Positions 19,079 to 49,647 of a stretch of 64,000 nucleotides of DNA are shown here, one piece after another; the first letter of the stretch is position 1; each line of letters begins with the position of its first letter. A model generated the notes under the pieces. The model was not told where the DNA came from and did not search any database. It worked only from the letters and a program-made list of their open reading frames with translations. This DNA is from Gemmatimonadales bacterium (GTDB taxonomy: Bacteria > Gemmatimonadota > Gemmatimonadetes > Gemmatimonadales > GWC2-71-9): the NCBI GenBank assembly GCA_050183815.1, contig JBFXAY010000005.1:26861-90860 (forward strand), in the 5' to 3' direction. A program made the position numbers and the translations under genes.

Positions 19079-19948
19079 CTAGGAAAGAAAACTTTCGAGA
19101 GCCTTGGAGCGGCTCACGTGGCGGAGCCGGCTCAAGGCCTTCTCCTTGATTTGGCGGACCCGCTCGCGGGTAATCCCGAGTTGGGCCCCGATTTCCTCGA
19201 GGGTCATCGGTTCCGGGCTGTCGAGCCCGAAATAGAGACGGAGGATTTTGGCCTCCCGCTCCCGGAGGCTCGACAGCACTTCCTCGATCGACTGGGTGAG
19301 GGCCCGTTCGAAGGTCTCGGCGTCCGGCCCGGGATTCTGGGTGTCCGGCAGGTAGTCCAGCAACCGGTTGTCCTCGCCCGGGGCCAGTGGGGCGTCGAGC
19401 GAGACGTGATTCTGGGAAATCGACAGGGTCTTTTCGACCTCCTCGACCTCGATATCCATCCCTTCCGCCACTTCGGCGGCCGTGGGTTCCCGGCCAAGCT
19501 CCTGCTGGAGGGCGGAACTCCGGCGGGTGATCCGGTGGAGCGTTCCGGCCCGGTTGAGCGGAACCCGCACGATCCGGCTCTGCTCCGCGAGCGCCTGGAG
19601 GATGGCCTGCCGGATCCACCACACGGCGTAGGAGATGAACTTGATGCCTTTGGTTTCGTCGAACTTGTGGGCGGCGCGAATGAGCCCGAGGTTGCCCTCG
19701 TTGATCAGGTCCGAGAGCGACACGCCCTGGTTCTGATACTTCTTCGCGACCGAAACCACGAAGCGAAGGTTGCTGCGGACCAGCTTGTCGAGCGCTTCCT
19801 CTTCGCCGACGTGGATGCGCCGGGCGAGCGTCACCTCCTCCTCCTGGTTGATCAGCGGATATCTGCTGATCTCGCGCAGGTAGAGATCGAGGGAGCCGTC
19901 GTCGGAGGCCGACCCGCCCCTGCCGGGGCCGACCCGAATCGGACGCAT
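19079..19948 (-). CDS. RpoD/SigA-family sigma-70 factor (short, group-2-like)
   Basis: Region 2 (LINEGNLGLIRAAHKFD, FISYAVWWIRQAI) and region 4 HTH (TLEEIGAQLGITRERVRQIKEKAL). Confidence 0.9.
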   Translation of the reverse strand: MRPIRVGPGRGGSASDDGSLDLYLREISRYPLINQEEEVTLARRIHVGEEEALDKLVRSNLRFVVSVAKKYQNQGVSLSDLINEGNLGLIRAAHKFDETKGIKFISYAVWWIRQAILQALAEQSRIVRVPLNRAGTLHRITRRSSALQQELGREPTAAEVAEGMDIEVEEVEKTLSISQNHVSLDAPLAPGEDNRLLDYLPDTQNPGPDAETFERALTQSIEEVLSSLREREAKILRLYFGLDSPEPMTLEEIGAQLGITRERVRQIKEKALSRLRHVSRSKALESFLS

Positions 19949-21661: not shown

Positions 21662-22123
21662 TCAGGGACAGACCCAGGCCGCGACGCCCCTGGCGTATCC
21701 GATTCGCGGCAGGACCACCGCCGCCGCAAGGCCGAGGCCCCAGAGGAACACCAGCAGCGACACGACATGCGCCACGCCGATGCGCTGCCGCCAGCTCGTC
21801 ACCATCCCCCAGACACCGCTCAGCCCCACGACGCCGACGGCACCGAGGTAGACAAACAGTGCCGTTCCGCAGGCGTGGAAGTAGGGCCATTGCGTCATGG
21901 CCGCCGCGAGCACCACGCCGAGCCCGACCCGAAGCCAGGTGCCCAGCGCGCTGCCCCGGGGCACGGCCGCCCGCGGAGCGGCAGCCGCCGGCGCCTTGCC
22001 CCCGCCCGCCGCCGGAGCCACCGCCTTGGAACCGCCGCCCGGCGCCGGGGCCGGCGATTTCGCCATGATCTTGTCGATTTCCGCGAGTTCCTTGTCCCAG
22101 TCGCGGGGCTGTTCGGCGCTCAT
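21662..22123 (-). CDS. hypothetical membrane protein (cytoplasmic N-terminus, Pro/Ala/Gly linker, about 3 TM helices)
   Basis: GC3-rich ORF. Its ATG overlaps the stop of the sigma54 activator (ATGA). Hydrophobic segments WLRVGLGVVLAAAM, LFVYLGAVGVVGLSGVWGMV and VVSLLVFLWGLGLAAAVVL. Confidence 0.6.
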   Translation of the reverse strand: MSAEQPRDWDKELAEIDKIMAKSPAPAPGGGSKAVAPAAGGGKAPAAAAPRAAVPRGSALGTWLRVGLGVVLAAAMTQWPYFHACGTALFVYLGAVGVVGLSGVWGMVTSWRQRIGVAHVVSLLVFLWGLGLAAAVVLPRIGYARGVAAWVCP

Positions 22124-23481
22124 TGGGACTCCTTGGAGAGCTGGAAGCGCTCCATCTTCTTGTACAGGGCGGATCGGGGAATGCCGGCCGCTCGGGCGGC
22201 CTCGGCGATGTTCCAGTCCGCCTCCTGGAGTTTCTGCAGCAGGAAGGAACGCTCCGATTCCAGGCGGAACTCTTCGAGACTGCCGCCGGCCGACACCGGT
22301 TCCGCCAGCGTGATCGTCGAGGACGGGAGGAGGCGTTCCACATCGGCCCGACTGACGGTCCGGCCCTTCGACAGGATCAGCAGGCGTTCGACCGCATTGC
22401 GGAGCTCCCGGACGTTGCCCGGCCAGGGCCTGGACTCGAGCCGGCTCATGGCGTCCGGCGCGAACGGCTTCGCCACGATGCCCGCCCGGCCGCTCAACTG
22501 CTCGACGAAGTGCGCCACCAGCTCGGATACGTCCGACCGGCGGTCGCGCAGCGGCGGCACCACGATCGGCACCACGTTGAGCCGGTAGAAGAGATCTTCC
22601 CGGAACCGGCCCGCGCCGATTTCCGCCTCCAGGTTCTTGTTGGTGGCCGCCAGCACCCGGACGTCGACCTCCTGCGCCCGCCCCGAACCGATCCGCGTCA
22701 CGATCCCTTCCTGCAGCGCCCGGAGCACCTTGGCCTGGGCGGACAGCGACATGTCGCCGATTTCGTCGAGAAAGAGCGTGCCGCCGTCCGCGAGCTCGAA
22801 CTTGCCGGGCCGATCACCCACTGCGCCGGTGAAGCTGCCCTTCATGTGGCCAAAGAGCTCGCTCTCGATCAACTCGGTGGGGATCGCCGCGCAGTTGACC
22901 TCGATGAAGGCCCGCTCGGCCCGCGGGGACGCCTCGTGGATGGCCCGGGCAACGAGTTCCTTGCCGGTGCCGTTCTCCCCGAGGATCAGCACCCGGGCGT
23001 CGGTCGGACCGACTCGGGCGATGACCTCGCGGACTTCCTTGAGCCCGTCACTGGAACCCACCATCGGGTAGCGGGTATCGACGTGCCCCTTCAGCCGCTC
23101 GAATTCGCCCGACAGCGAGGCGTGGGACGTGGCGTTTCGCAGCGTGACCAGGAGACGGTCGGCGTCGAGCGGCTTTTCGAGAAAGTCGAACGCCCCGCGC
23201 TGCGTGGCCTGCACCGCCGTGGCAATGGTGCCATGGCCGGAAATCATGACCACGACCGCACCGGGATCGAGGGCCTTGAGGCGAGACAACACTTCGAGTC
23301 CGTCGAGTCCGGCCATCTTCACGTCGAGCAGGACCACGTCCGGACGGAAACTTTCGAACAGCGTGAGGCCCTCGCCGCCGGAACCGGCCGTACGCACGTC
23401 CCAGCCCTCGTACTCGAGCACCTGGCGGACCGCGTCCCGGATGGCCGCTTCATCGTCGACGATCAGCACCTTCGCCTTCAT
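22120..23481 (-). CDS. sigma54-dependent response regulator (NtrC/AtoC-type enhancer-binding protein)
   Basis: REC domain (VLIVDDE, LLDVKM), AAA+ domain (GENGTGKE, GSFTGA loop, ESELFGH, LFLDEIG) and a C-terminal Fis-type HTH. The ATG at 23481 is inside the longer 22120..23655 ORF. Confidence 0.9.
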   Translation of the reverse strand: MKAKVLIVDDEAAIRDAVRQVLEYEGWDVRTAGSGGEGLTLFESFRPDVVLLDVKMAGLDGLEVLSRLKALDPGAVVVMISGHGTIATAVQATQRGAFDFLEKPLDADRLLVTLRNATSHASLSGEFERLKGHVDTRYPMVGSSDGLKEVREVIARVGPTDARVLILGENGTGKELVARAIHEASPRAERAFIEVNCAAIPTELIESELFGHMKGSFTGAVGDRPGKFELADGGTLFLDEIGDMSLSAQAKVLRALQEGIVTRIGSGRAQEVDVRVLAATNKNLEAEIGAGRFREDLFYRLNVVPIVVPPLRDRRSDVSELVAHFVEQLSGRAGIVAKPFAPDAMSRLESRPWPGNVRELRNAVERLLILSKGRTVSRADVERLLPSSTITLAEPVSAGGSLEEFRLESERSFLLQKLQEADWNIAEAARAAGIPRSALYKKMERFQLSKESQ

Positions 23482-24116
23482 CGAGGTACCCCATAGAGCA
23501 CGGTCCCCCGCGGCGTGACCCGTACGCCGGTCACGCGCTGGTCGACGGGGAACGTGAGCGAAGTGCGCGCCCCCGGCAGCACCGCCGCGAGCAGCGGCTC
23601 CCAGAGCGGCCGGGGCAGCGGGACCCGGCTCACCGACACGCTGCTGATCCGCCACTCGCCGGTGCCGACCCGGAGCAGCCCGATCGGCCCGCCGACTTCC
23701 ACCATCCGGGGCCCCTCGAGCCAGTCGCGCAGCGGGCCCAGCGAATTCGCCGGCAGCCGGGCCGGATCGATCCGCCCCCGAAGGCTCACGGAGCCGTCAC
23801 CCAGCTGAACGCTCACACTGTCGGCCAGCGTGCCAAGGCGCCGGGCCACTTCCTCGACCACGAGGGCTTCGGTTTCCCGCGGGGAGAGCAACACCGAATC
23901 GGCGCGGCGCCGCACCACCGAGTCGAGGCGGGCTTCCGCGACCCGGATCAGTTGCGCCGGCGATTCCGCCTCGGCCGGGAGCGACCCGGGTTCGGCCGTC
24001 ATCTCGTGCACCCATCGTTTCACCTCGGCCCGGTGGGTCCAGGCCAGGTACCCGAGGGCAATCATGATCGCGAGGCCAAGGAGCCGGAACGGCAGGGTGA
24101 GACAGCCTTTGATCAC
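23478..24116 (-). CDS. hypothetical single-pass membrane-anchored protein
   Basis: GTG start overlapping the thpR stop (GTGA). TM helix LPFRLLGLAIMIALGYLAW followed by a ~180-aa extracytoplasmic domain with no recognisable motif. The stop overlaps the activator start (ATGA). Confidence 0.6.
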   Translation of the reverse strand: MIKGCLTLPFRLLGLAIMIALGYLAWTHRAEVKRWVHEMTAEPGSLPAEAESPAQLIRVAEARLDSVVRRRADSVLLSPRETEALVVEEVARRLGTLADSVSVQLGDGSVSLRGRIDPARLPANSLGPLRDWLEGPRMVEVGGPIGLLRVGTGEWRISSVSVSRVPLPRPLWEPLLAAVLPGARTSLTFPVDQRVTGVRVTPRGTVLYGVPR

Positions 24117-24664
24117 TGGAACCGGACCTCGTGACGAACCTGGTAGGTCGGCCCCGAGGGACCCAGTTCGCTCAGGAACAGCACCACCCGATCGGCCAGG
24201 AAGGCCGAACCCGGGCGGATCCGCTCCAAGGCGGTTTCCCAACTCGCCGGCAGCCGATGACCCTCGCGAACCCGGCCGAGGGTGACGTGCGGCCGGAACG
24301 GACGGCCCTCGGGGGGAAACCCGAGCTTCTCGGCACCCCGCTCGATTCGATCCTGCAACAACTCGAGACTGGGCTCCGAATCGATCGCGAGCGCCACCAC
24401 CCGCGGCCGCCGGGCCGTCGGCCATACCGTGGCGCCGGAGAACGACAGCGCAATCGGGCTCACGCCGCCGGCGGCGAACGACAGCATTTCGACGATCGCG
24501 TCGACCCGGTCCGAGGTGACCTCGCCGAAGAACTTGAGGGTGAGATGGGGACCATCTTCCCGGATCCAGCGAACCGGCCACTCGAGCTGCCGCAACGCGC
24601 GGAGGACCTCCGCCGTCTCGCCGCGGGCGGGCTCGGGCAACGGAATCGCGATGAACAGTCTCAT
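24113..24664 (-). CDS. thpR: RNA 2',3'-cyclic phosphodiesterase (2H phosphoesterase, ThpR/LigT)
   Basis: Two HxTx motifs (GPHLTLKF and RPHVTLGR); 183 aa. Confidence 0.85.
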   Translation of the reverse strand: MRLFIAIPLPEPARGETAEVLRALRQLEWPVRWIREDGPHLTLKFFGEVTSDRVDAIVEMLSFAAGGVSPIALSFSGATVWPTARRPRVVALAIDSEPSLELLQDRIERGAEKLGFPPEGRPFRPHVTLGRVREGHRLPASWETALERIRPGSAFLADRVVLFLSELGPSGPTYQVRHEVRFQ

Positions 24665-25455
24665 GTGGCGATCGGCAACAGACTCCCGCGCCGGTATCCG
24701 GCCGGGTCGAGGTCAACGTGCGGGAAGCCCAACTCGGCGAACCGGCCCTCGACTTCAGGCCACCGGGCGGCGAGTTCGGCCAGCTGATCACGGGCCACTT
24801 CGACCCGGGCCCGGGAGCCGTGGTGGCGGACCCGCAGGTCGCCCCGGATTCCGAGGGTACGGAGAAACGCCTCGCCGAGTTCCACTTGCCGGAGGCGGTC
24901 GGCGGTGACTTCCAGGCCGTAGGCTATCCGGCTCGACAAGCACGGCGCCGCGGGGGCGTCCCACACGGGCAGGCCGAGGTCCCGGGCCACGTCGCGTACC
25001 CGGGCCTTGTCCCACCCAAGGTCGAGAAACGGCGATCGGATGCCCCGCTCCCGTCCGGCGGCGGCGCCGGGCCGGTGGTCACCAAGGTCGTCGGTGTTGG
25101 TCCCGTCGACGATAGTGCCGAAGCCCCGCTCCGCGGCAATCCCGCGGAGCCGGCTCCAGAGCTCCGTCTTGCAGAAGTAGCACCGGTCAGGATTGTTGGC
25201 CCGGTACCGATCGTCGGAGAGCTCCTCCGTGGCCACCTCGAGCACGGGCACGCCGAAATCGCGGGCCACGGAACGTGCCGCCTCCCATTGAACGGCCGGG
25301 TAGGACGCGCTCCGGCCGATGACGGCCAGGAAGTCGGGACCGAGGACCCCCGCCCCGACCACGGCGAGCACCGCGGAGTCCACCCCGCCGGAATACCCCA
25401 GCAGGGTGCGGCCGGCCGCCCGGTACCAGTCGTCGAGTTCGTGCCGTGATGACAT
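24661..25455 (-). CDS. LarE-like PP-loop ATP pyrophosphatase (adenine nucleotide alpha-hydrolase)
   Basis: PP-loop YSGGVDSAVLA and CYFCK motif. The ATG at 25455 is inside the 24661..25518 ORF. No larB or larC in the window. Confidence 0.8.
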   Translation of the reverse strand: MSSRHELDDWYRAAGRTLLGYSGGVDSAVLAVVGAGVLGPDFLAVIGRSASYPAVQWEAARSVARDFGVPVLEVATEELSDDRYRANNPDRCYFCKTELWSRLRGIAAERGFGTIVDGTNTDDLGDHRPGAAAGRERGIRSPFLDLGWDKARVRDVARDLGLPVWDAPAAPCLSSRIAYGLEVTADRLRQVELGEAFLRTLGIRGDLRVRHHGSRARVEVARDQLAELAARWPEVEGRFAELGFPHVDLDPAGYRRGSLLPIAT

Positions 25456-25477
25456 GCCGGAAACGTAACGCTGAGGC

Positions 25478-25491
25478 CAGCTTCCGGAAGC
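25478..25491. promoter_or_regulatory. 12-bp perfect palindrome GCTTCCGGAAGC in the divergent larE-like/arfB promoter region
   Basis: Self-complementary sequence. The 13-mer CAGCTTCCGGAAG recurs at 34239-34251 in another intergenic region. Confidence 0.3.
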
Positions 25492-25523
25492 ATTTTTCGG
25501 CACCGCCGCTACATTCACGACCC

Positions 25524-26246: not shown

Positions 26247-26807
26247 CTAACGAGCGGCGACCTGGTCCCGGCGGGTGGCGAGCCGCCGTTCGAGATCGCC
26301 GGCCAGGCCGTCGATCCGGTCCCGGCCCGCGCCCACCAGGCCGACCACCGCTCGCACCAGCGGATTGCCGATGTCCCGCTCCTCGCGGATTTCGAGGCGG
26401 GTGCCGGCGGCGTGCGGTTCGAGACGGTACACCCAGCGGGTCCCCGGTGCGGCGTCAGCGGACCGGACCACCAGCCGGACCGGCGGCACCACCTCGACGG
26501 CCTCCAGGGCCGCCGTGCGGCCGTCGGCGCGAATCTCCCGCCACCGCACCGAGGCCGGCCCGCCGGGCAGGCGTTCGAGCCCGGCCAGGTCATGCCGCCA
26601 GTCCGACATCGCGTCGAGGTCGGTGAGCAGCTGCCAGATCGTTTCCGGCGACGCCGCCAGTTCGAGCCGAGCCGACTCGGCGTGGTGCCGCGGCAGGAAG
26701 AGCCCGACCAGCCAGAGGCCGACCAGCACCGTACCCGGCACCGCCAGAGACAGCCGCCGGAGCCGGGCCTGGCGGCGGCGCTGCGAACGACTCACAGGGA
26801 GTTTCAT
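26247..26807 (-). CDS. SRPBCC (polyketide cyclase/START-like) family protein with an N-terminal TM anchor
   Basis: Pattern ASPETIWQLLTDLDAMSDWRHDL...WVYRLEP...GTRLEIRE. ATGA overlap with the marR-family gene. Confidence 0.7.
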   Translation of the reverse strand: MKLPVSRSQRRRQARLRRLSLAVPGTVLVGLWLVGLFLPRHHAESARLELAASPETIWQLLTDLDAMSDWRHDLAGLERLPGGPASVRWREIRADGRTAALEAVEVVPPVRLVVRSADAAPGTRWVYRLEPHAAGTRLEIREERDIGNPLVRAVVGLVGAGRDRIDGLAGDLERRLATRRDQVAAR

Positions 26808-27262
26808 CCGGTTGGTTCCTCCGACGTTCGACGCCAGCGACGAATGGCGCGGGCCAACGTGGTCAGTCCCGCCACGCCGGCGGCCCGCTCGTCCGGCGTG
26901 AGTTCCTCAAGCAGCGACCGCACCCGGACCGGATCGAGCAGCGACCGGTCCCGAGCCACCTGCGCCCCGGCCGCCGTCAGCCGCACCAGCACTCGCCGCT
27001 TGTCCGCCGCATCCCGATCCCGCTGGACCATCCCGAGGCGGCCGAGGCGGTCGATCAGCAAGGAGACCGTGGGCATGGCGAGACCGAGCGTCTGGGCGAG
27101 ATCGCCGACGGTGCGGCCGTCCCGCTGGTCGAGGTGCCCCAGGACGGTGGCCTGGTGGGCGCTCACGACCGCTTCCCCGGCGGGCACTTCCCGCTGCCGG
27201 AGGGCGTGATGGATGACCGGGTAGGCGGCGAGCACCTGGGCGACGGCGTCGGCACGAGGCAT
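26804..27262 (-). CDS. MarR-family transcriptional regulator
   Basis: Winged HTH (TVGDLAQTLGLAMPTVSLLIDRLGRLGMVQRDRDAADKRRVLVRLT). The ATG at 27262 is preferred; an alternative GTG lies at 27277. Confidence 0.85.
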   Translation of the reverse strand: MPRADAVAQVLAAYPVIHHALRQREVPAGEAVVSAHQATVLGHLDQRDGRTVGDLAQTLGLAMPTVSLLIDRLGRLGMVQRDRDAADKRRVLVRLTAAGAQVARDRSLLDPVRVRSLLEELTPDERAAGVAGLTTLARAIRRWRRTSEEPTG

Positions 27263-27283
27263 GAACAACGATAGCACAATTAT

Positions 27284-27302
27284 TTTTATTTGTCAAATAA
27301 AA
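27284..27302. promoter_or_regulatory. AT-rich perfect inverted repeat TTTTATTTG-T-CAAATAAAA (candidate MarR operator / divergent promoter)
   Basis: 9-bp arms around one central base, inside a ~40-bp AT-rich island in an otherwise GC-rich window. Lies between the divergent marR-family and tonB-like genes. Confidence 0.5.
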
Positions 27303-27433
27303 TTATTGGGAAGATCCCGCCGCGCCAACACGTTGAGCGACAAAGCAAAGCCGTTCGCTGGGGTCGAAACCGCGCCTCCCTTGCCTCCGTCGGGACCAGT
27401 ACCGTAGAGTTGAATCGAAGGGAGTTGGACCAG

Positions 27434-28129
27434 GTGCCATTCGACATCCTCCCGCCCCGGTCGCGTTTCTGGGATCCGGGAGCGGTCACCAGCCTCGTCA
27501 TCCACACGCTGCTCGTCCTGCCGCTCGTGATCGGTGCGCCGATCGCCGATGCCGGCGGCGACCCCGTGGAGCAGCTGGTGACGTTCCTGGTCCCGCCCAA
27601 CCGCGAGGTCGGGCGGGCGGAGAAGAGCCAGGGCGTGCAGTGGTCGAGCGTCGAGGGCACGGGCGGCGCCACGGAGGAGGAACTCCCCGTGGTGGCGGAG
27701 CCGGTCGAGGAACTCCCGCTTGGCACGGCGGGGGACACCGTGGCCGCCGAGCCGGAGGTGCCGTCCGCCCCCGCGGTGGACGAAACCGCCCTCACCGAGA
27801 TCGAGGTTGACTCGGTCGTGGCCCGGGACCCGACCAGCGCGGCGCCGGTCTACCCGCCGGAGCTGCTGGCGAAGGAGATCGAGGGCAGTACTTTCGTGAA
27901 TTACGTGGTCGACACCACCGGCCAGGTCGATCTCTCGACGATCCGGATCGTATCGACCACCCGGCCGGAGTTCGCCGAGGCGGTGAGGGTCGCCCTGGCG
28001 CAGATGAAGTTCCGCCCGGCGATCCAGGCTTCCCGAGTGGTGCGCCAATGGGTTCAACAGAACTTCGCGTTCCGGATCGTTCGTCCGGCCCAGCAGCGGC
28101 CCGACACGACGTCATCTCGATCGACCTGA
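27434..28129 (+). CDS. TonB C-terminal-domain energy-transducer protein
   Basis: TM helix AVTSLVIHTLLVLPLVIG, an acidic/Pro linker and a TonB_C pattern (PVYPPELLAKEIEGSTFVNYVVDTTGQVD...RPEFAEAVRVALAQMKFRPA). GTG at 27434 with AAGGGAG upstream is preferred over the TTG at 27290. Confidence 0.7.
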   Translation: MPFDILPPRSRFWDPGAVTSLVIHTLLVLPLVIGAPIADAGGDPVEQLVTFLVPPNREVGRAEKSQGVQWSSVEGTGGATEEELPVVAEPVEELPLGTAGDTVAAEPEVPSAPAVDETALTEIEVDSVVARDPTSAAPVYPPELLAKEIEGSTFVNYVVDTTGQVDLSTIRIVSTTRPEFAEAVRVALAQMKFRPAIQASRVVRQWVQQNFAFRIVRPAQQRPDTTSSRST

Positions 28130-32037: not shown

Positions 32038-32195
32038 GGACTCGCGGTTTGCGCCGATTCGTGTCGGTTTCGCGTGTCGAACCCACACGGCCGGACCGCC
32101 GGAAATCGGGGCCCCGTTGGGGGGACTCGACTTACCGGACCCCGGGAGCTGGTATGGGGGTTGCGAAGCCGTAAGTCGGGAGGTCGTGCAGCGTT

Positions 32196-32603
32196 ATGCG
32201 GTTGTTTCGAACTACGATGATGGCGGCAGTCCTGGCCGCGACGAGCTGCCTGGGGACGGACACCCAGGAGGCGGCGTTGGGGCAGGAGTTCGAGCTCATC
32301 CCCAACGAGAGCACCCGGATTTCGGGCACCCAGTTGGTGGTCGGTTTCCGGCGTGTGGCCGAGGATCTTCGCTGCCCGATCGACGCCGCCTGTGTGGCGG
32401 ACGGCGAGGCCGGGATCGAGATCGAGGTCTTCGGCACGGATCACTCGGGCCCGATCCTCGTGAACACGCCGCTGCCCAATTCGTGGCACGACGCCAGCTA
32501 TCAGGTGCGTCTGGTGGACCTCCTGCCTCATCCGACCGCCGACCATCCGATCAGCCCGGACGAGTACCGGCTGCGGCTGGTGGTGGACCGCCTCCCCCGC
32601 TGA
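32196..32603 (+). CDS. small lipoprotein, unknown function
   Basis: Lipobox LAATSC, and a CPIDAACVADG motif containing a Cys pair. Convergent 53-nt overlap with the comM/yifB-like gene. Confidence 0.65.
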   Translation: MRLFRTTMMAAVLAATSCLGTDTQEAALGQEFELIPNESTRISGTQLVVGFRRVAEDLRCPIDAACVADGEAGIEIEVFGTDHSGPILVNTPLPNSWHDASYQVRLVDLLPHPTADHPISPDEYRLRLVVDRLPR

Positions 32604-35597: not shown

Positions 35598-36691
35598 CGA
35601 CGACCTGTCGGGCTGCGGTCATCCCGGCCCCTCACGCCCCCGTCGAACTGCGCCAGGTCCCGGTGCCGAAGCTCGAGCCCGGTGCAGCGTTGCTCGAAAC
35701 GACGTACTCGGAGGTGTGCGGCACCGACGTGCATCTCCACCACGGCCGGCTCACCGGGGTGCCGTATCCGCTCATCCCGGGACACGTCTCGATCGGCCGG
35801 ATCGTCGACCTGGCCGGCACGCCGCGGGACATCGAAGGGGAGGCGTTTCGCGCCGGGGATCTGGTCACGTTCCTCGACGTCCACGAGACCTGCAACGCCT
35901 GCTACCAGTGTCTCGTGGCCAAGCAGACGACGCGGTGTCCGCACCGCAAGGTCTACGGCATCACCTACGGCGCGGACGACGGCCCCCTTGGCGGCTGGGC
36001 CGACCGGATCTGGATGAAACCCGGAGTGAAGATGATCCGGATTCCGCCGGACCTGACACCCGAGACCTTCATCGGGGGCGGTTGCGGTCTGGCCACCGCG
36101 GTCCATGCGGTCGAACGGGCCGGGATCCAGCTGGAACAGAGCGTCGCCGTGCTGGGCGTGGGGCCCGTCGGCCAGTCGGTGATCGCGCTCGCCGCCTTGT
36201 CGGGTGCCGGGCAGGTCTTCGCGGTCGGCGGGCCGGCCGATCGGCTGGCATTCGCGCAGCGAATGGGCGCCACCGACGTCATCGGGCTCGAAATCCCGCC
36301 GGAGGAGCGCGCGGCCGCCGTCCGGGCGGCCACGCGCGGGCGGGGGGTCGACGTGGTGATCGAGGCGGCGGGACGGCCCGAGGCGGTACCGCAGGCGCTC
36401 GATCTGGTGCGGGACGGCGGCCGGGTGGTGGTGGTCGGCCAGTACACCGATCACGGGGCGGTGCCGATCCATCCGCACTTCCAGATCAACCGGAAGCACG
36501 TCGAGATCCGCGGCTGCTGGGGTTCCGATTTCTCCCACTTCCACCGGGCGGTGGCCCTGGCCGCCCGGCACCAGGACCGGGTGCCGTGGCGCGAGATGGT
36601 CTCGGCCCGCTACTCCCTGAACGACGCCGGCCTGGCACTCGAAGCCGTCGAGCGCCAGGCCGTGCTGAAGGCCCTGATCGTACCGGCCTAA
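35594..36691 (+). CDS. zinc-type medium-chain alcohol dehydrogenase/reductase
   Basis: EVCGTDVHLHHG, PLIPGHV and Rossmann VLGVGPVGQS motifs. ATGA overlap with the VOC gene. Confidence 0.85.
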   Translation: MTTTCRAAVIPAPHAPVELRQVPVPKLEPGAALLETTYSEVCGTDVHLHHGRLTGVPYPLIPGHVSIGRIVDLAGTPRDIEGEAFRAGDLVTFLDVHETCNACYQCLVAKQTTRCPHRKVYGITYGADDGPLGGWADRIWMKPGVKMIRIPPDLTPETFIGGGCGLATAVHAVERAGIQLEQSVAVLGVGPVGQSVIALAALSGAGQVFAVGGPADRLAFAQRMGATDVIGLEIPPEERAAAVRAATRGRGVDVVIEAAGRPEAVPQALDLVRDGGRVVVVGQYTDHGAVPIHPHFQINRKHVEIRGCWGSDFSHFHRAVALAARHQDRVPWREMVSARYSLNDAGLALEAVERQAVLKALIVPA

Positions 36692-37620
36692 CGACTCGAC
36701 CGGACCCGGATGTCGCCGGAGAAAGACTGCAGGTCGATTACCGCCGAGCCGTTGCCCCAGGAGCCGCTGAACCGGTTCCGGCGCCGGCGACTGTCCCGGT
36801 TGACCGGGAAGTCGGAGTCGAAGCGGCCGCTGAAGGTCGAGGCCGTCACCTTGGCATCCGGTTCCCGCGGCACGGTCAGCGTCACATCCCCGCTCAGCGT
36901 CTCGAAGTTGTACTCGCCGCGGCCGTCGATCGGGCCGGCGAACGTCACGTCGCCGCTCACGGTTTGCGCGGACATTTCCCGCACGGCGACCTGATCGAGC
37001 CGGACGTCGCCGCTGACACTCCGGGCGTCGAGGGTTTCCCCCTGGGCGTCGGTGAGTTCCAGTTCCCCGGAGACGGTCCCGAGATCGAGGGACCGACCCC
37101 GCAGCCCCCGGCCGAAGACGTCGCCGACGACGCTGTGGATGTCGAGATCGAGACCCGCCGGCACCCGAACGGTGAACTCGACGCGGGTGTCGTTCCGGCT
37201 GTTCCCGCCCCAGTTGCCCTCCCGGCGGCAGGGATCGTCGGCCCGGCGCCGGCTCCGGTCATCGCGATCGTCGCGGTCCTCCCGCTCAGCTCGGTCGTCC
37301 CGGTCATCACGATCCCGCTCCCGGCCCCGCCGGCTGTCGTTGGACTGCCCTGGGTACCAGACGCAGACCGCCACGCCGCCTCCCGGAAGGTCTCGCGCTT
37401 CGATCTCGACGTCGCGGGGATCGCCCTGTCGCCCTTCGCGCTTGACCGCGGTGACTTCGAGCCGGCGGCCCGCTGACGCCTCGACCCGGATGTCGCCGAT
37501 GATGTTCCGGAGCGCGAACCGCGATCCCGGCGCCAGCTGGCGGTTGAGTTCGAAGTCCTGGGCCGCCATTGGGGCGGCGCCGGCCGCGCCGGCGAGGAGA
37601 ACGAGGGAAAGGGCCTTCAT
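36688..37620 (-). CDS. DUF4097-family beta-repeat protein (putative adhesin fold), secreted, with a charged Asp/Arg insert
   Basis: Signal peptide. Repeated SGD(V/I)-type strands (VSGDVRL, VSGDVTF, LSGDVTL, FSGDIRV). The 45-aa insert RRGRERDRDDRDDRAEREDRDDRDDRSRRR is flanked by two Cys. Confidence 0.75.
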   Translation of the reverse strand: MKALSLVLLAGAAGAAPMAAQDFELNRQLAPGSRFALRNIIGDIRVEASAGRRLEVTAVKREGRQGDPRDVEIEARDLPGGGVAVCVWYPGQSNDSRRGRERDRDDRDDRAEREDRDDRDDRSRRRADDPCRREGNWGGNSRNDTRVEFTVRVPAGLDLDIHSVVGDVFGRGLRGRSLDLGTVSGELELTDAQGETLDARSVSGDVRLDQVAVREMSAQTVSGDVTFAGPIDGRGEYNFETLSGDVTLTVPREPDAKVTASTFSGRFDSDFPVNRDSRRRRNRFSGSWGNGSAVIDLQSFSGDIRVRSSR

Positions 37621-38642
37621 CGGCGGATCTCCAGATTGATCGGGAACGCGAATGAGAAGTCGAAGTCGATGCCGAAGCCGAGGGCGAGAGACAGGTCGAG
37701 GTCGAAGTCGAAGTCACGACCCCGTTCGCCCCGTTCGCGGTCGCGGTCGCGGTCGCGCCCCCGCTCGCGTTCCGGCCGGCGCTCCGGCCGGAGCTCGGAG
37801 GGGCGAATCAGTCGGACGTCGCCGCTGAAGGTTTCCACCTCGATCGAGGCGCTGCCGTTGCCCATCGTGTACGTGGCCCGGCGGCGCGACCGCCGATCGG
37901 TCTTGAGGTCGAGACTCGACTCGACATCGCCGTTGGCCGAGGAGACCGAGATCGTGGCGTTGCTGTTGTCGGGCAGGGCCACGACGACGTCACCGCTGTG
38001 CGAGAGGAAGGAGTAGGTGCCGGCCTCCGCGATCGTGCCCTCGAAGGTCACATCGCCGCTCACCGTCTGGGCATCCACGGAGGCCGCCGCGATCCGGCGA
38101 AGCATGATGCTGCCCGACACCGCTTCGACGGTGATTTCGCCCTGGACGTCCTCAACCCGGATGTCGTCGGAGGCCGAGTGGAGCTCGACCCGGCCGCGGG
38201 CACCGGTGACGTCGATGCGGCCCTGGGCCGTCGATACGGTGACGTCGGTGCCGCCCCGGATCCGGATCTCGCCATCGATGGTGGACACCTTGATCGGCGC
38301 CCGGGTCCCCTCGACGACGATGTCGGACTCGAGGCCGCCAAGTTCGACCGCCATCCAGGTCGGCACCGTCAGCTCGTAGTCGACCACGCCGCCGAGTCCG
38401 AGGGAGCCCCGGCGGCCGCGGAGCTGGATCACGGAGCCGCGGTTGTCCACCTCGATCTCGGTCCGGGACGAGTGCTCTGCCTGGATCCGCATCCGGTCCT
38501 GATCCCAGGCGCGGATGGTGATGTCGCCACCCTGTTGCTGGAGCCGGAGCCGGGATCCCTGGCGGACGGCGATGGTGGTGTCGGTACCGCGTTGGTCCCC
38601 GACCCCGCCAATCGCCGCGAGAAACAGCAATGTATGAATCAT
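37617..38642 (-). CDS. DUF4097-family beta-repeat protein with a charged repeat and an alternating amphipathic C-terminal tail
   Basis: The ATG at 38642 is inside the 37617..39224 ORF. SGD(V/I) repeats (VSGSIML, VSGDVTF, HSGDVVV, FSGDVRL). The tail is RDRDRDRERGERGRDFDFDLDLSLALGFGIDFDFSFAFPINLEIRR. Confidence 0.75.
   Translation of the reverse strand: MIHTLLFLAAIGGVGDQRGTDTTIAVRQGSRLRLQQQGGDITIRAWDQDRMRIQAEHSSRTEIEVDNRGSVIQLRGRRGSLGLGGVVDYELTVPTWMAVELGGLESDIVVEGTRAPIKVSTIDGEIRIRGGTDVTVSTAQGRIDVTGARGRVELHSASDDIRVEDVQGEITVEAVSGSIMLRRIAAASVDAQTVSGDVTFEGTIAEAGTYSFLSHSGDVVVALPDNSNATISVSSANGDVESSLDLKTDRRSRRRATYTMGNGSASIEVETFSGDVRLIRPSELRPERRPERERGRDRDRDRERGERGRDFDFDLDLSLALGFGIDFDFSFAFPINLEIRR
37735..37757. 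repeat. in-frame hexanucleotide tandem repeat (TCGCGG) x ~3.8 within the DUF4097 gene tail
   Basis: Read directly: tcgcgg tcgcgg tcgcgg tcgcg. Nearby tandem units are gaagtc x2 and cccgttcgc x2. Confidence 0.7.
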
Positions 38643-38658
38643 CGAGTCCGTCCGTTCG

Positions 38659-39333
38659 TCAGGTTTCGCTGGCGAGGGCCCGGGTGGCCAGCCGAAGCAG
38701 GTTGACCTTGGCCCGCATCCTCGCGGTGATCTGACCGTTGAGATACGCGTTGGCCGTATCTCGTTGGATCGCCGCGCGGGCCTCCGCGATCGCGGCGTCG
38801 ATCTTGGCGAGACTTTCTTCGAGGACCCGGACGGTGGCCGTGTCGAGCTTCGACCGGTTGGCCCGGAGCGTCGCTTCGAGCTCGCTGACGGCGGCGTCGT
38901 AGGCGACTTCCCGACGGTTCGCGAGGAGCGTCGAGTCGGTCCCGGGGGCGAGGGTCGGCGGCGCCGAGGCCAGGGTTGGCGCCGGCACTGGGCCGGCGGA
39001 GCCGCCGCGAAGGAGCCAGGCCCCCGCGGCTCCGATGCCGACGAGCAGCAGCGCCGCCGCGGCGAGGGCCACCGGCCGCGAAGCTGGCCGTGTTGCCGGC
39101 CGCGCGAACGGCAGCACGGAGGGACCCACCTGGCGTCGAATCGCGGGCCAGAGATCGCGAGACGGCTCGGTCCCGGCATATCCCGGGGCCGCCGCCACGA
39201 TCCGGCGCAGATCCTCGAGGACACCGCGGCACGCGGCGCACTCGCGGAGGTGACCGTCGACCCGGCGCCGGGTCACGGCGTCGAGTTCGTTGTCGAGGTA
39301 TGCCGACAGAAGGTCGGTCCATTCGGAATGCAT
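38659..39333 (-). CDS. anti-sigma factor (zf-HC2 type), single-pass membrane protein
   Basis: N-terminal H-x3-C-x2-C motif (VDGHLRECAACRGVL) and TM helix VALAAAALLLVGIGAAGAWLL. The start overlaps the ECF sigma stop (TGATG). Confidence 0.8.
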   Translation of the reverse strand: MHSEWTDLLSAYLDNELDAVTRRRVDGHLRECAACRGVLEDLRRIVAAAPGYAGTEPSRDLWPAIRRQVGPSVLPFARPATRPASRPVALAAAALLLVGIGAAGAWLLRGGSAGPVPAPTLASAPPTLAPGTDSTLLANRREVAYDAAVSELEATLRANRSKLDTATVRVLEESLAKIDAAIAEARAAIQRDTANAYLNGQITARMRAKVNLLRLATRALASET

Positions 39334-39851
39334 CAGGCGCTCTCCTTCTCACCCAGCACCCGGCGGAGCAGCATCCGGGCCCGGTGCAGCTGCGAGCGCG
39401 AGGTCCCGGGGTCGATCCCGAGCAACTCGCCGATTTCGTCGTGTTTGAAGCCTTCCATGTCGTGCAACACGAAGACGTCGCGGGCACCGGCGGGAAGGTC
39501 CCCCACCGCCCGTTCAATGGCCACCTTGAGGTCCGGATGATGGCTCGGCGCTGCGGCGCCGGCGAGGGCGATTTCGTCCGAACCATGCCGGTCGTAGAAC
39601 CGGACCGTCGTCTCCCGGCGGCGCAACAGCGCGTTGACCGCAACCCGGTGGAGCCAGGTACCGAAGGCACTCTGCCCGCTGAAAGTCCCGATCTTCTGCC
39701 AAACCCGAATGAAGACCTCCTGCACCGCATCGTCCGCATCGTCCACTCCAACCAGCCACCGGGCCAGAGAGTTCACCCGGGCCAGATGCTGACGATAGAG
39801 ACGCTCGAACGCGGCGGCATCCCCGCGGGCGGCGAGGGCGACGTCGTCCAT
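39333..39851 (-). CDS. ECF (sigma-24 family) RNA polymerase sigma factor
   Basis: Region 2 (FERLYRQHLARVNSLARWLVG...DAVQEVFIRVW) and region 4 (HDEIGELLGIDPGTSRSQLHRARMLLR). The ATG at 39851 is preferred over 39896. Confidence 0.85.
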   Translation of the reverse strand: MDDVALAARGDAAAFERLYRQHLARVNSLARWLVGVDDADDAVQEVFIRVWQKIGTFSGQSAFGTWLHRVAVNALLRRRETTVRFYDRHGSDEIALAGAAAPSHHPDLKVAIERAVGDLPAGARDVFVLHDMEGFKHDEIGELLGIDPGTSRSQLHRARMLLRRVLGEKESA

Positions 39852-39998
39852 CTCAGCGTTCGCTCGTCCGAGCGGCAAGGCAGGTTGCAGGCGCAAGGCT
39901 TCGGCGGCCAGGGTCCAGTCCTAAGGAATTGATTCGAAAGGGTTTGAGCCAGGGAGGCACAAAAACGTTGGAATCCGTCCGGAGGCACTTGCCCGGGC

Positions 39999-44674: not shown

Positions 44675-45991
44675 CTAGATCAGTGCCCGCCGCTTGAGAC
44701 CAACGTAGCAGTCTACGACGGCTTTCGCTGCCGCCTCCGGATGGGCATCCACGACGATCACGCCGCGAGAGCGGAGATCGGCCAACGCGTCGTTGCGAAC
44801 GAGGAGCAACTGCTCGGCCGCCGCCCGTTCGAAGGCGGATTCCACCGTGCTCGCCGAGGCCACGGCGAGCCGCTCGAGCGCCAGGTCGCGAAGGGTCACG
44901 GCCACCGGCACGTGGCGCGGACGGAGCCCGCCGAGCTGGTGCACGAGGGCATCGCTGGCGAACCGGTCGATGACGTCGGTGAAGAGCACGGTCAGGGCCC
45001 GCTTCCGTGCCTGGGCCGCCAGAAAAGCGAACGCCCGCGGGTAGTCGGATTCCACCAGCCGCCCCTCGACCAGCGCCAGCGCGTCGAGAATGGCGCGGAG
45101 CGCCCGCCGCCCGCGCACTGGCGGCACGAAATGATCGATGTCGTCCGAAAAGACGATGAGCCCGACGTCGTCGTCGAGCCCGACCGCCCGATAGGCGAGC
45201 TGCGCTACCGCCTCCACGGCATCCTCGAGGCGGGGCCGACCCTCCGTTTCCGCGGTGAGCATCCGGCCGGCATCGAGCGCGATCATCACCCGCTGCCGCC
45301 GCTCGGCTTCGTACTGTCGGGCGATGAGCTTGCCGCGCTTGGCCGAGGCCTTCCAGTCCACCGCCCGCATCTCGTCGCCGGGGACCCACTCGCGGAGACT
45401 CTCGAAGAGGCGCCCCTCCCCGATCCGCCGGACCTGACGAAGTCCGACCTCCCGGCGAATCCGGCTCTGCGTCGGCAACTGGGCCAGCGCGGCGTTACGG
45501 AGCGCCGGGTACACTGTGATCTCCCAATCGGGACGGAGCACGAGCTGCCGCCAGCAGAGGCCCCAGGGCCCCGCCACCCGGATGTCGAACCGCCACCGGC
45601 GGGCCCGGCCCCGGGCCCGGGGGTCGAGGCGTCGCTCCTCGATCCAATCGCGGTCCGCCCGCAGATCGATGATCCGGTCACTGCCGTCCGGCAGACCGAT
45701 TTCGGGCGGGGCGGATTCGCGCACCCAGAGGCGGGCCGAACGCGGGCTGTGCCAGTGATATCGAACCGGCAACGGCCGCCCGAGCGACAGGGCACCGGCC
45801 GCGGTGCGGATCAGGGAGAGACGGCTCGCGTCGAAGCGGTTCACCCGATACCCATCGACCGCCAGCATCAGGACCCAGAGCACCGAGGCCGTTACCCAGG
45901 CCACCGCTGCGGCCGGCCACCAGACGGCCCCGACGGCAATCGCGCCGGCGAGCAGCGCCCCGAGCAACCACCGCCGCGAGGGAACGATCAC
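44675..45991 (-). CDS. DUF58 (vWA-like) protein with two N-terminal TM helices
   Basis: REWVPGDEMRAVDWKASAKRGKLIARQYEAERRQRVMIALDAG is the DUF58 signature. GTGA overlap with the MoxR gene. Confidence 0.85.
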   Translation of the reverse strand: MIVPSRRWLLGALLAGAIAVGAVWWPAAAVAWVTASVLWVLMLAVDGYRVNRFDASRLSLIRTAAGALSLGRPLPVRYHWHSPRSARLWVRESAPPEIGLPDGSDRIIDLRADRDWIEERRLDPRARGRARRWRFDIRVAGPWGLCWRQLVLRPDWEITVYPALRNAALAQLPTQSRIRREVGLRQVRRIGEGRLFESLREWVPGDEMRAVDWKASAKRGKLIARQYEAERRQRVMIALDAGRMLTAETEGRPRLEDAVEAVAQLAYRAVGLDDDVGLIVFSDDIDHFVPPVRGRRALRAILDALALVEGRLVESDYPRAFAFLAAQARKRALTVLFTDVIDRFASDALVHQLGGLRPRHVPVAVTLRDLALERLAVASASTVESAFERAAAEQLLLVRNDALADLRSRGVIVVDAHPEAAAKAVVDCYVGLKRRALI

Positions 45992-46971
45992 TGCCGCGGG
46001 GCCTCGATGGCATCGAGCACCGAGGCGAGCGCCGCGTCGGGGGTCACCCCCTCGAGTTCCAGTTCCGGCGCCACCATCACCCGGTGCCGCAACACCGCGG
46101 GCGCGAGGGATTTCACGTCGTCCGGAATGACGAAGGTCCGGCCCTCCGCGGCGGCCGCCGCTTGCGCGAGTTTGAGCAGGGCCACACTCGCCCGCGGGGA
46201 GGCGCCGAGGGTGAAGGCCGGCGCGTCGCGGGTCGCCCGAACGAGCGCGGTGATGTACTCGACCAGCGGCGGTTCGGCCCGAACCCGGGCCACCGCCGCC
46301 TGGAGTGCGGCGATCCCGTCCCGATCCGCGACCGGCGTCACCCCGAACGTTTCGGTGGCCGCCGGGTCGAACCCGCCCAGCACCCGGTCCAGGAGACCAC
46401 GCTCCGCCTCGGCGTCTGGGTAACCGATGATGCTCTTCACCAGGAAGCGGTCGAGTTCGGCTTCGGGCAGCGGGTAAGTACCCTCGAACTCGATCGGGTT
46501 CTGGGTGGCGAACACCGTGAAGGCGGCCGAGAGGCGGTGCGCCTCGCCGTCGACCGTGACGGTGCGCTCCTGCATCGCTTCGAGCAGAGCCGCCTGGGTC
46601 TTGGCGGGGGCGCGGTTGATCTCGTCGGCCAGCACGAGATCGGCGAACACAGGGCCGGGCCGGAACGTGAACTGGGCGCCGCCGGTCATGATGTTGACGC
46701 CGGTGAGGTCCGCGGGCATCAGGTCCGGAGTGAACTGGATCCGCCGGAAGTCGAGCGACAGCGCCTGGGCCAGGGTGCGGACCAGCAGCGTCTTGGCCGT
46801 CCCGGGCGGGCCTTCCAGCAGCACGTGCCCCCGGGCCAGGAGCGCGAGGACGACCTCGCGGACCACGGCGCGCTGTCCGAGCACCACCCGCTCGAGGGCG
46901 CCGGCGAGCGCGGCAATCCGTTCGGCCGCATCCTGGGCCGCGTCAGGGCTCAGGAACTCATCTCGTTCCAC
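45988..46971 (-). CDS. MoxR-family AAA+ ATPase
   Basis: Walker A LLEGPPGTAKT, Walker B VLADEINRAPAKTQAALLEAMQE, and TVFATQNPIEFEGTYPLPEAELDRF. Confidence 0.9.
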   Translation of the reverse strand: MERDEFLSPDAAQDAAERIAALAGALERVVLGQRAVVREVVLALLARGHVLLEGPPGTAKTLLVRTLAQALSLDFRRIQFTPDLMPADLTGVNIMTGGAQFTFRPGPVFADLVLADEINRAPAKTQAALLEAMQERTVTVDGEAHRLSAAFTVFATQNPIEFEGTYPLPEAELDRFLVKSIIGYPDAEAERGLLDRVLGGFDPAATETFGVTPVADRDGIAALQAAVARVRAEPPLVEYITALVRATRDAPAFTLGASPRASVALLKLAQAAAAAEGRTFVIPDDVKSLAPAVLRHRVMVAPELELEGVTPDAALASVLDAIEAPRQ

Positions 46972-48173
46972 ATGTCCTCCACGAGGTTTGCCGCCGTGAG
47001 TACATCACTTTCGGACGGCTGCGGGCGATCGAGCGCCTCGAGCCGCTGTCCGAGTGCTACCACCTTCTGGTTGCGGGTCCGGTGCCGGATCTGTTCGAGC
47101 CAGGACCGCCAGGAATCCCGCTGCCCGCTGCTCGGGCGGCCGAGCCGCCGCCGGACGCCACCGACGAGGAGCCCGATCGCCAGGCCGTGACCGCCGGCCG
47201 CCCGGAGGGCGGCCGCGAGGGCCCGCACGTGCTCGGCCACGGAGCGCCGCCGCCGGTCGAACGCCTCGACCGGCGGGCCGAACCGGACGGCGCCGGCAGC
47301 GAGCGCCAGCAGGCCGACCACGATGGCATGCCAGACGAGCCAGCCCCACGGCGACCGCGCGGCCCACTCCATCACGAAATCGACCATCGAGCCGCCCTCG
47401 GAGAATCCATGGCGGAACTCGTCGAACCAGACGACCTGATAGTCGAGCAGCCAGGGCAGCACGACTGCGCCGGCGTCGGTTTCCCGGAGCGTCTGATTGC
47501 GAAACAGCCCGACATCCCCGACCAGGGTGACCGTACCGGAGCCGCCGGGCGGCCGCAGGCGAACCGCCACCGGGGAGCCTCCGGCCGTCAGCAGCGTGTC
47601 CACCGGCACCCCGCGCACGACGTCGCAACGATAGACGAGCGCGTCACTCAGGCGGCTCGAATCCACGACCTCGCTCTCGGTCGTTTCGCGAAGCGCGAGC
47701 CGCACCCTCGGTGCCGGCAGCCGGCCGTCCGGACGGTCCACGGGCGTGACGGCGTCCGGCACCGGTCGGCTGCCGCGATCGAGGCGGAGCGTGTCGAACC
47801 CGAGGCATCGGAGGACCGCGCGGGTGGTCGATCCCGCGAACAGCAGCGAGACGCCGCGGCGCGGCAATTCGAGCAACGCATCGACATCGGAGCCGGACAC
47901 CGGCCGGGAGGGATTCAGGAGGATCACCGCAGTGGCCGATCCGGAATCCATCATGGTCGCGAAACGCTCCTGGCGGAGTTCCCGAACGTCCACGCCGAGG
48001 CGGCGGGCCGCTTCCGCCACGGCAGAGGCCCCGTTCGGCTCAGTGATCAGCGTCGAGGGCCGGACATCCGCGCCCGGCGTCGGCCGGCGGCGGGTCCCGG
48101 CGTTGGCCACGATCAACGCCAGCAACGCGATCAGCGCGAGGGTCCCGATGAGGAACCTACGATCCGGGGACAT
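46950..48173 (-). CDS. DUF4350-domain membrane protein
   Basis: N-terminal TM helix FLIGTLALIALLALIVA, a periplasmic alpha/beta-like domain, a second TM helix WLVWHAIVVGLLALAAG and a helical C-terminus. The ATG at 48173 is inside the 46950..48245 ORF. Confidence 0.75.
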   Translation of the reverse strand: MSPDRRFLIGTLALIALLALIVANAGTRRRPTPGADVRPSTLITEPNGASAVAEAARRLGVDVRELRQERFATMMDSGSATAVILLNPSRPVSGSDVDALLELPRRGVSLLFAGSTTRAVLRCLGFDTLRLDRGSRPVPDAVTPVDRPDGRLPAPRVRLALRETTESEVVDSSRLSDALVYRCDVVRGVPVDTLLTAGGSPVAVRLRPPGGSGTVTLVGDVGLFRNQTLRETDAGAVVLPWLLDYQVVWFDEFRHGFSEGGSMVDFVMEWAARSPWGWLVWHAIVVGLLALAAGAVRFGPPVEAFDRRRRSVAEHVRALAAALRAAGGHGLAIGLLVGGVRRRLGRPSSGQRDSWRSWLEQIRHRTRNQKVVALGQRLEALDRPQPSESDVLTAANLVEDMWNEMSS

Positions 48174-49548: not shown

Positions 49549-49647
49549 GGGGAATCTCCGCCGCTGGGGTTCGCCGCCGGTAGGCCGAATTCTCACCCAC
49601 GGGTCCCGACTTGGGAAGGCCACCCCGGGGTTCCTAGATTGGGGACA

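Follow-up and report, generated by a model that had tools for sequence, protein, structure and literature searches.

A stretch of 64,000 nucleotides from a Gemmatimonadales bacterium (contig JBFXAY010000005.1; the whole stretch is called the window below and has a G+C content of about 70%) contains five overlapping genes that, judged from the genomes compared, form an operon conserved order-wide in Gemmatimonadales. At its core, the gene for an NtrC-family sigma-54 activator, an enhancer-binding protein (EBP), is followed by mem153, which encodes a membrane protein of 153 amino acids (aa). Our best explanation, which we hold with about as much confidence as doubt, is a conserved sigma-70-driven operon in which a standard phosphorylation-activated EBP is coupled to mem153 and the membrane proteins act as its partners. 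It is an operon of a bacterial enhancer-binding protein (bEBP) with two new membrane protein families, and constitutes a lineage-specific puzzle, not a new class of system. Literature searches found no description of this operon in Gemmatimonas.

All five genes lie on the minus strand. The first, a larE-like gene (24661..25455, 264 aa), encodes a LarE-family PP-loop ATP pyrophosphatase of the [4Fe-4S]/CxxC...C type, and thpR (24113..24664, 183 aa) a ThpR/LigT RNA 2',3'-cyclic phosphodiesterase. The product of mem212 (23478..24116, 212 aa, GTG start) consists of an N-terminal transmembrane (TM) helix and an alpha/beta domain and is Gemmatimonadales-specific. The EBP (22120..23481, 453 aa) is an NtrC-family sigma-54 enhancer-binding response regulator with the order REC-AAA+-HTH_8, and mem153 (21662..22123) encodes an N-terminal helix (PRDWDKELAEIDK), a Pro/Ala linker and three TM helices. 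The original prediction, five minus-strand open reading frames (ORFs) between 21662 and 25455 with four 4-nt ATGA/GTGA overlaps, agrees with the coordinates and with the junctions as read: ATGA for larE/thpR, GTGA for thpR/mem212, and ATGA for both mem212/EBP and EBP/mem153. The in-frame G+C content at third codon positions is 0.84-0.87 for each of the five ORFs. Across 58-84 orthologues, their substitutions rank third > first > second codon position and in-frame stops are absent; this includes both membrane ORFs, which are therefore coding, contrary to a reservation raised earlier. Rfam and tRNA scans of the window gave no match.

Gene order, junctions and gene loss across genomes

The mem153 gene is encoded in 342 species-level genomes. 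Loci from 80 species-level genomes were compared, and the gene string is kept in all of them, apart from the losses of 5' genes given below; tblastn searches with the window proteins were run against 85 loci. Three loci that span 54% to 32% mem212 identity have an identical order: a divergent arfB, then larE-thpR-mem212-EBP-mem153, followed by aldh and a sigma-70-family gene. The neighbourhood is thus conserved in relatives, as these three tabulated loci and the wider tblastn searches indicate. Wherever a locus extends far enough, mem153 is immediately preceded by the EBP gene, even at mem153 identities of only 44-50%. For mem153, the co-occurrence of the membrane proteins with this EBP that had been proposed for testing is therefore seen in all loci covering both genes. 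All 80 loci are labelled Gemmatimonadota except one, L061 (JAQAZZ010000184.1), a 4.9-kb contig deposited in a 'Micrococcales' metagenome-assembled genome (MAG). It carries a typical Gemmatimonadales string of arfB and larE-mem212-EBP-mem153-aldh and is probably a binning contaminant.

Sixty loci contain enough upstream DNA to score larE, thpR and mem212. All three genes are present in 42 of them, only thpR is missing in 8, only larE in 5 and only mem212 in 4, while a single locus retains larE without thpR and mem212. Thus, thpR is missing in 8-9 loci, larE in 5 and mem212 in 4-5, with the losses falling in different lineages; EBP and mem153 are always kept. Of the five loci that lack a mem212 match, four have also lost the space for the gene and thus represent real deletions; in the fifth, L073, a 650-bp gap remains that may hold a divergent mem212 copy.

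The 4-nt overlap is found at the mem212/EBP junction in 62 of 67 loci and at the EBP/mem153 junction in 68 of 80. The larE/thpR junction overlaps by 4 nt in 20 and by 1 nt in about 25 of 48 loci, and the corresponding numbers for thpR/mem212 are 26 and about 15 of 56. The junctions from mem153 to aldh and from aldh to the sigma-70 gene are almost always gaps. After the loss of a gene, most of the new junctions overlap or abut again. The pattern of losses and the conservation of the junctions indicate a conserved operon-like unit, with EBP and mem153 as invariant core and 5' genes that are individually dispensable. The tight unit originally proposed holds, and the translational coupling that was read from its overlaps is plausible, since they are kept over deep divergence.

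The activator and its membrane-protein neighbours

Pfam and NCBIfam searches assign REC, Sigma54_activat, AAA_lid_14 and HTH_8 domains to the EBP (Response_reg, 4.8e-30; Sigma54_activat, 8.8e-70; HTH_8, 2.1e-08 at residues 409-446). Among 78 orthologues, the REC residues DD9-10, D52, S80 and K102 are conserved in 76-78, a GSFTGA sequence as GAFTGA-type loop is present in all 78, and Walker A (GxNG[ST]GKE) and Walker B (LFLDE[IV]G) vary only slightly. The intact REC domain that had been predicted is therefore borne out by phospho-acceptor residues that are invariant or nearly so, and the protein combines the features of the NtrC family: a phospho-acceptor REC pocket, an AAA+ domain with Walker A/B motifs and GAFTGA-type loop, and a Fis-type HTH. 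Among solved structures, Aquifex NtrC4 (4l4u, 6e-102), NtrC1 (1ny5) and Brucella NtrX (5m7n, 1.7e-97) come closest. The EBP stays below every NCBIfam equivalog cutoff; its best model, NtrX (NF051870), gives 442.1 bits where 600 are required. On these motifs and scores, the EBP is a functional phosphorylation-type bEBP outside any named subfamily. It is the sole EBP in the window; the cultured Gemmatimonas aurantiaca has sigma-54 and 12 EBPs (Francke et al. 2011, PMC3162934, supplementary file 1).

The closest known systems are the NtrC-family bEBPs, such as NtrC1 and NtrC4 of Aquifex aeolicus and the enteric NtrC, ZraR and AtoC, which share the REC-AAA+-HTH_8 order, the GAFTGA-type loop, Walker A/B and the phospho-acceptor Asp. 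The EBP studied here differs in having no adjacent kinase and in being encoded distally in an operon that includes two membrane proteins specific to the lineage. The NtrY/NtrX system of Alphaproteobacteria supplies the best NCBIfam model and the Brucella match, but the score of the EBP stays under the cutoff, no NtrY-like kinase is adjacent and GSFTGA is invariant, while NtrX proteins are not known to have a canonical GAFTGA. The PspF-PspA-PspBC system, in which small membrane proteins adjust a bEBP, is a conceptual analogue, the resemblance being one of analogy. PspF is without a REC domain, and no PspA/IM30, PspB or PspC domain is found in mem153 or mem212 by Pfam or NCBIfam at E <= 0.1.

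Homologues of mem153 number at least 381, and the family has 570 representatives at 50% identity. The AlphaFold2 (AF2) model, with a predicted local distance difference test (pLDDT) score of 78, places a helix at residues 9-22, from which a disordered Pro/Ala linker leads to three TM helices, in agreement with the linker and the roughly three TM helices recognised at first. In EBP-linked orthologues (alignment A2), the invariant residues comprise R7, W9, D10, E12, A14 and D17 of the N-terminal helix, W79-P80-Y81 and C85-G86 of the first loop, and W111, R114, H119, P139-R140, G142-Y143, W150 and C152 of the second loop and tail. Given an N-in topology, Cys85 and Cys152 would both be periplasmic. 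The protein has no relevant Pfam or NCBIfam match at E <= 0.1, and no match of its model to PDB folds at E <= 0.001, with best TM-scores of <=0.51 to generic helix bundles; its family profile has no significant match among PDB sequences.

The TM module of mem153 also occurs in paralogues (L086:8001-9368, which is P0377, as well as P0275, P0325 and P0398) whose N-terminal helix differs and whose C-terminus is fused to an alpha/beta hydrolase. These proteins keep the TM module with most of its invariant residues, and the L086 paralogue has no EBP nearby. The RDWDKE helix, as far as these alignments go, is specific to the EBP-linked form of mem153. A role of mem153 as anti-sigma factor for the downstream sigma gene was considered and rejected, as it has no anti-sigma domain and aldh intervenes.

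A hypothetical protein from a Gemmatimonadales MAG has the same sequence as mem212. A single-sequence search retrieves 33 homologues and a profile search at least 923, all of about 215 aa, and every named source is a member of the Gemmatimonadales. In the AF2 model of mem212 (pLDDT 89.4), a TM helix at residues 6-26 is followed by another helix and, after a brief disordered stretch, by an alpha/beta domain of about 160 aa. The invariant residues include W25, R28, D72-S73, S99 and W154 (alignment A1), and mem212 is the fastest-evolving of the five genes. The single TM helix of the original prediction is thus supported by the model, but its large outer domain is unproven, as the charges in alignment A1 are balanced on either side of the helix and leave the sidedness ambiguous. 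A lipoprotein was rejected, because the conserved Cys at residue 4 is too near the N-terminus for a lipobox. There is no relevant Pfam or NCBIfam match at E <= 0.1, no match of the model to PDB folds at E <= 0.001 (best TM-score <=0.27), and nothing significant in the comparison of the family profile with PDB sequences (best E = 0.21). The remote-homology searches and structure predictions recommended for both membrane proteins have thus yielded models and no known relative. Described at the outset as unannotatable, the two remain without Pfam, NCBIfam or PDB match, yet they are real and conserved, and they represent Gemmatimonadota-restricted families.

In the mechanism that we infer, including its leaderless start, single transcript, partnership between membrane proteins and EBP, and the identity of kinase and targets, transcription of the operon would begin at the larE ATG under a conserved sigma-70-type -10 box, and the mRNA would probably be leaderless. 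The core of the operon would be a phosphorylation-dependent NtrC-family activator, translationally coupled to mem153 and usually preceded by mem212. A kinase encoded elsewhere would phosphorylate the EBP at Asp52, and the phosphorylated EBP would assemble an AAA+ ring and remodel the sigma-54 holoenzyme at -24/-12 promoters outside its own operon. As membrane-side partners, mem153 and, where present, mem212 would tether or modulate the EBP, with mem153 serving as anti-activator or co-sensor via its invariant cytoplasmic N-terminal helix.

The main rival to such a partnership, possible but doubtful, is synteny without shared function, in which the genome is compact and GC-rich, phylogenetic inertia holds the genes together behind one promoter and no relation exists between activator and membrane proteins. 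Several observations fit this rival or otherwise weigh against a partner role. Synteny is generally high in the whole region, and the conserved block extends to arfB, aldh, the RpoD-like sigma gene (82-97% identity) and yajQ, so that adjacency alone is weak evidence. Likewise, 8 of 31 other co-directional junctions in the window (about 26%, a count that rests on heuristic gene starts) have 4-nt overlaps; because such overlaps are common in this genome, they are by themselves weak evidence, and it is their conservation across genomes that carries weight. The larE and thpR genes are each dispensable, as is mem212 in some lineages, and the TM module of mem153 is not EBP-specific because it is also fused to alpha/beta hydrolases away from any EBP. 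The leaderless start is read from its motif, and we infer a physical or genetic link between EBP and membrane proteins from gene context. Synteny on its own, however, is difficult to reconcile with an EBP-mem153 adjacency that is free of exceptions in the covering loci even at the lowest mem153 identities, with overlaps kept at 85-93% of the two EBP junctions where the aldh and sigma-70 junctions have gaps, with the re-sealing of junctions once genes are lost, and with a cytoplasmic mem153 helix that is invariant only in the EBP-linked form. These four features are the reason why the partner role is favoured.

A further-reaching proposal is that EBP, mem153 and mem212 constitute a Gemmatimonadota-specific membrane-coupled signalling unit. 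The membrane proteins, instead of or besides a kinase, would gate the EBP, which would control envelope genes such as lip135 (see the next section), and obligatory co-transcription with a [4Fe-4S] LarE-type enzyme and ThpR would tie EBP dosage to RNA/sulfur metabolism. As a whole, this proposal is improbable.

Whether the EBP has a kinase partner in its vicinity was addressed by Pfam scans of about 45 window ORFs, which contain neither HisKA/HATPase_c domains nor Sigma54 (rpoN); the statement that the window encodes no histidine kinase is therefore upheld. No kinase is found within 8 kb of the operon in L001, L003 and L004, so that the classical two-component pairing is not seen there. Among 107 flanking ORFs of >=330 aa from 19 diverse loci, 6 contain HATPase_c and 5 HisKA. 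One subclade has an orthologous PAS-HisKA-HATPase_c kinase (48-70% identity) 3-6 kb upstream on the operon strand, in the order HK-comM-sua5-arfB followed by the operon, where HK is the histidine kinase (L027:122-3538, L034:67-1584, L054:48-1784, L070:20-2218; also L039, L077 and L078). L072 and L080, placed in the same subclade by their gene spacing, have no match to it within 10 kb, and it is absent from the window. A different, non-orthologous kinase is located on the opposite strand in L020, L023, L045 and L062. Hence, the designation of the EBP as orphan applies to the window but is qualified by the PAS kinase of that subclade, and no kinase is consistently adjacent in homologous loci. 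By position and orthology, the PAS kinase is a weak candidate partner that is not conserved as a neighbour.

An ordinary two-component system, in which the kinase gene has drifted away, the PAS kinase of the subclade is cognate and the membrane proteins are irrelevant to signalling, would account for the invariant phospho-acceptor residues of the EBP and for the orthologous kinase upstream on the operon strand in seven loci. It is nevertheless very unlikely, as two or three unrelated genes separate kinase and operon, the kinase is missing near the operon in L072 and L080 and from the window, the kinases of four other loci are non-orthologous and on the opposite strand, and 5-6 kinases per 107 large flanking ORFs are only mildly above chance expectation.

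The LarE-like enzyme, ThpR and promoter sequences

The LarE-like protein scores 269.8 bits with TIGR00268 (cutoff 150) and aligns over its full length with LarE of L. plantarum (5udq, 1e-40). It has CYFC at the position of WYYA in the L. plantarum protein and a further Cys in PCLSSR. Among 62 orthologues, SGG[VT]DS is present in 61, CxxC in at least 60 and PCL[SA]SR in 62. Family score, PP-loop SGGxDS and CxxC...C triad together place the protein in the LarE family. The SGGxDS motif and the triad are shared with the [4Fe-4S]-dependent LarE of Thermotoga maritima, in which the triad binds [4Fe-4S]; it is said to be common to most homologues, and such LarE proteins are likened to [4Fe-4S] tRNA-thiolation enzymes (PMC9283937). 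The operon differs from the T. maritima case in that larA, larB and larC are not found among the window ORFs scanned. For larB and larC this agrees with the original prediction and extends to the flanks of L001, L003 and L004; the co-occurrence of larB and larC that marks the Lar nickel-pincer pathway is thus not seen in the window ORFs scanned. ThpR scores 131.8 bits with TIGR02258 (cutoff 65.7), matches Pfam LigT_PEase twice and has both HxTx motifs (HLTL at 40, HVTL at 126), as expected of a ThpR/LigT 2H enzyme. From their motifs, both the LarE homologue and ThpR look catalytically competent. No paper tying LarE to ThpR was found.

No support was obtained for the proposed functional link between the EBP and the two enzymes, ThpR and the PP-loop protein: some lineages have lost thpR and others larE, whereas EBP and mem153 are retained throughout. 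The two enzymes are separable; they share the promoter and are not needed for the regulatory core. If the membrane proteins do not control the EBP, the linkage of the LarE-like enzyme, ThpR and EBP is one of promoter sharing and not of a pathway.

Upstream of larE, a -10-like hexamer, TACGTT (25462..25467, minus strand), precedes the ATG by 6 nt and has the consensus TTACGTT[T/A]CC; across loci, the TTACGTT box is conserved at 6-7 nt from the ATG. A TAnnnT hexamer is found 6-8 nt before the larE ATG in 59 of 62 loci and is TACGTT in 39, where the search pattern demanded TAnnnT and the full TTACGTT consensus is the informative part. The intergenic sequence between arfB and larE is otherwise divergent. 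The spacing between hexamer and ATG is that expected for the -10 box of a leaderless mRNA, and it suggests that the TTACGTT box is the sigma-70-type promoter of a leaderless larE transcript. The position of the box also supports the ATG at 25455 over the GTG at 25518 as larE start. In a survey of anti-Shine-Dalgarno sequences, the Gemmatimonadetes have a value of 22, among the lowest in the table (PMC10783764); read as the percentage of Shine-Dalgarno-led genes, this would fit frequent non-Shine-Dalgarno or leaderless initiation.

For the divergent arfB (139 bits, NCBIfam cutoff 100), 25524 is the most likely start, as the longer ORF aligns with the NCBIfam model only from residue 31 onwards and an orthologue has 139 aa. 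The resulting larE/arfB spacer of 68 bp (25456-25523) contains two back-to-back TAnnnT boxes, each 6-8 nt from its own ATG; that of arfB is TACATT (25510-25515, plus strand), 8 nt upstream of the start. A perfect 12-bp palindrome, GCTTCCGGAAGC, is located between the boxes at 25480-25491. In one subclade (L020, L023, L045 and L062) the spacer is 150-210 bp long and contains short, AT-richer tandem units (CTTAAGG/GGCTTATGGC/GCTAACC…), and in L032 it carries an inverted array of GAGTAAG/CTCACT units. The TAnnnT-N6-ATG pattern could not be extended to other window genes, whose starts are heuristic. A scan of 18.5-26.2 kb for consensus sigma-70 promoters gave 0 promoters, and a terminator scan of the same region gave sites at or below shuffle expectation.

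Sigma-54 promoters were sought with the pattern TGGCAC-N5-TTGCW, scored out of 11. The window contains no site scoring >=10/11, and none precedes the operon or arfB. The EBP therefore does not drive these genes, and it would act elsewhere. About 10 kb from the operon, a candidate sigma-54 promoter (CTGGTATGGGGGTTGCG, 32150-32165, plus strand) lies 30 nt before the ATG of lip135, an ORF for a lipoprotein-like product of 135 aa (32196-32603, plus strand) without Pfam or NCBIfam match. About 75-90 bp upstream are an inverted repeat, CGTGTCGAACCCACACG (32073-32089), and, at 32060, a further half-site, CGTGTC. L016, L019, L022 and L046 have kept promoter, repeat and gene, within intergenic DNA that has otherwise diverged. 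A conserved canonical -24/-12 promoter at this distance indicates that sigma-54 signalling operates in the lineage, and since the EBP studied here is the only one in the window, the lip135 promoter is a candidate EBP target. No second copy of CGTGT-N7-ACACG was found near the operon; the only one, at 32073-32089, is no more than expected by chance for the pattern alone. Matches in other loci were rejected, as they lie within coding sequence, judged by conserved codon-like sequence, and a combined scan of all loci for promoter and repeat returned only the lip135 promoter clade.

RtcR sets a precedent for linking a sigma-54 EBP with RNA repair, and ThpR acts on 2',3'-cyclic phosphates, so that the operon resembles RtcR-RtcBA in placing a sigma-54 activator beside RNA-end-processing functions. 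Accordingly, ArfB, ThpR and the LarE-like enzyme could treat cleaved or stalled RNA under an EBP that senses stress and controls the response, a proposal that draws on three RNA- or translation-linked genes lying together (arfB, thpR with both HxT motifs and the LarE-type gene with CxxC...C) and on the RtcR precedent. This Rtc-like module is highly improbable: the EBP has a REC and not a CARF domain, the RtcR model, with 303 bits, falls short of its cutoff of 650 and matches the AAA+ part only, rtcA and rtcB are absent from the window ORFs scanned, and neither the operon nor arfB is preceded by a -24/-12 promoter, the operon having a sigma-70-type box instead. Moreover, neither RNA enzyme is indispensable; larE, thpR and mem212 are lost independently and the junctions re-seal, which argues against an obligatory RNA-repair/activator unit.

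Other features of the window and biological meaning

The sigma-70-family gene downstream of aldh (19079-19948, minus strand) encodes a 289-aa RpoD-like sigma factor with regions 1.2, 2, 3 and 4, which is 82-97% identical across loci. Its best NCBIfam matches are RpoD models at about 300 bits, under the cutoff. It may be a short primary-type sigma factor without region 1.1, presumably as in Bacteroidota.

An AT-rich stretch at 27240-27330 (…AATAATTTTATTTGACAAATAAAAATAATTG…) covers the 12-bp gap between, and the adjoining ends of, a MarR-family gene (26804-27277, minus strand) and a divergent TonB_C gene (27290-28129, plus strand); in a genome of 70% G+C, it is probably an operator/promoter region. 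At 36688-39896 (minus strand), the gene for an extracytoplasmic function (ECF) sigma factor (39333-39896) is followed by two DUF4097 'toastrack' proteins with a 4-nt overlap, which may represent a sigma/anti-sigma-type module. The region 44675-51438 contains a MoxR AAA_3 ATPase-DUF58-DUF4350 cluster on the minus strand that faces RDD and SpoIIM domains on the plus strand, where an ORF of 1230 aa is probably an over-extended call.

The Gemmatimonadota are abundant in soil and water and almost unstudied genetically, and the operon is present in hundreds of their species. In it, a standard sigma-54 activator sits between two protein families that have neither annotation nor Pfam model, and for which the PDB contains no structural relative. 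Should the membrane proteins control the EBP, bEBP signalling would have a new input route, and the function of two orphan families found throughout the order could be approached for the first time. Otherwise, the locus still yields a motif for a leaderless promoter and, with its inverted repeat upstream, a candidate sigma-54 promoter, both of which are testable in cultured Gemmatimonas.

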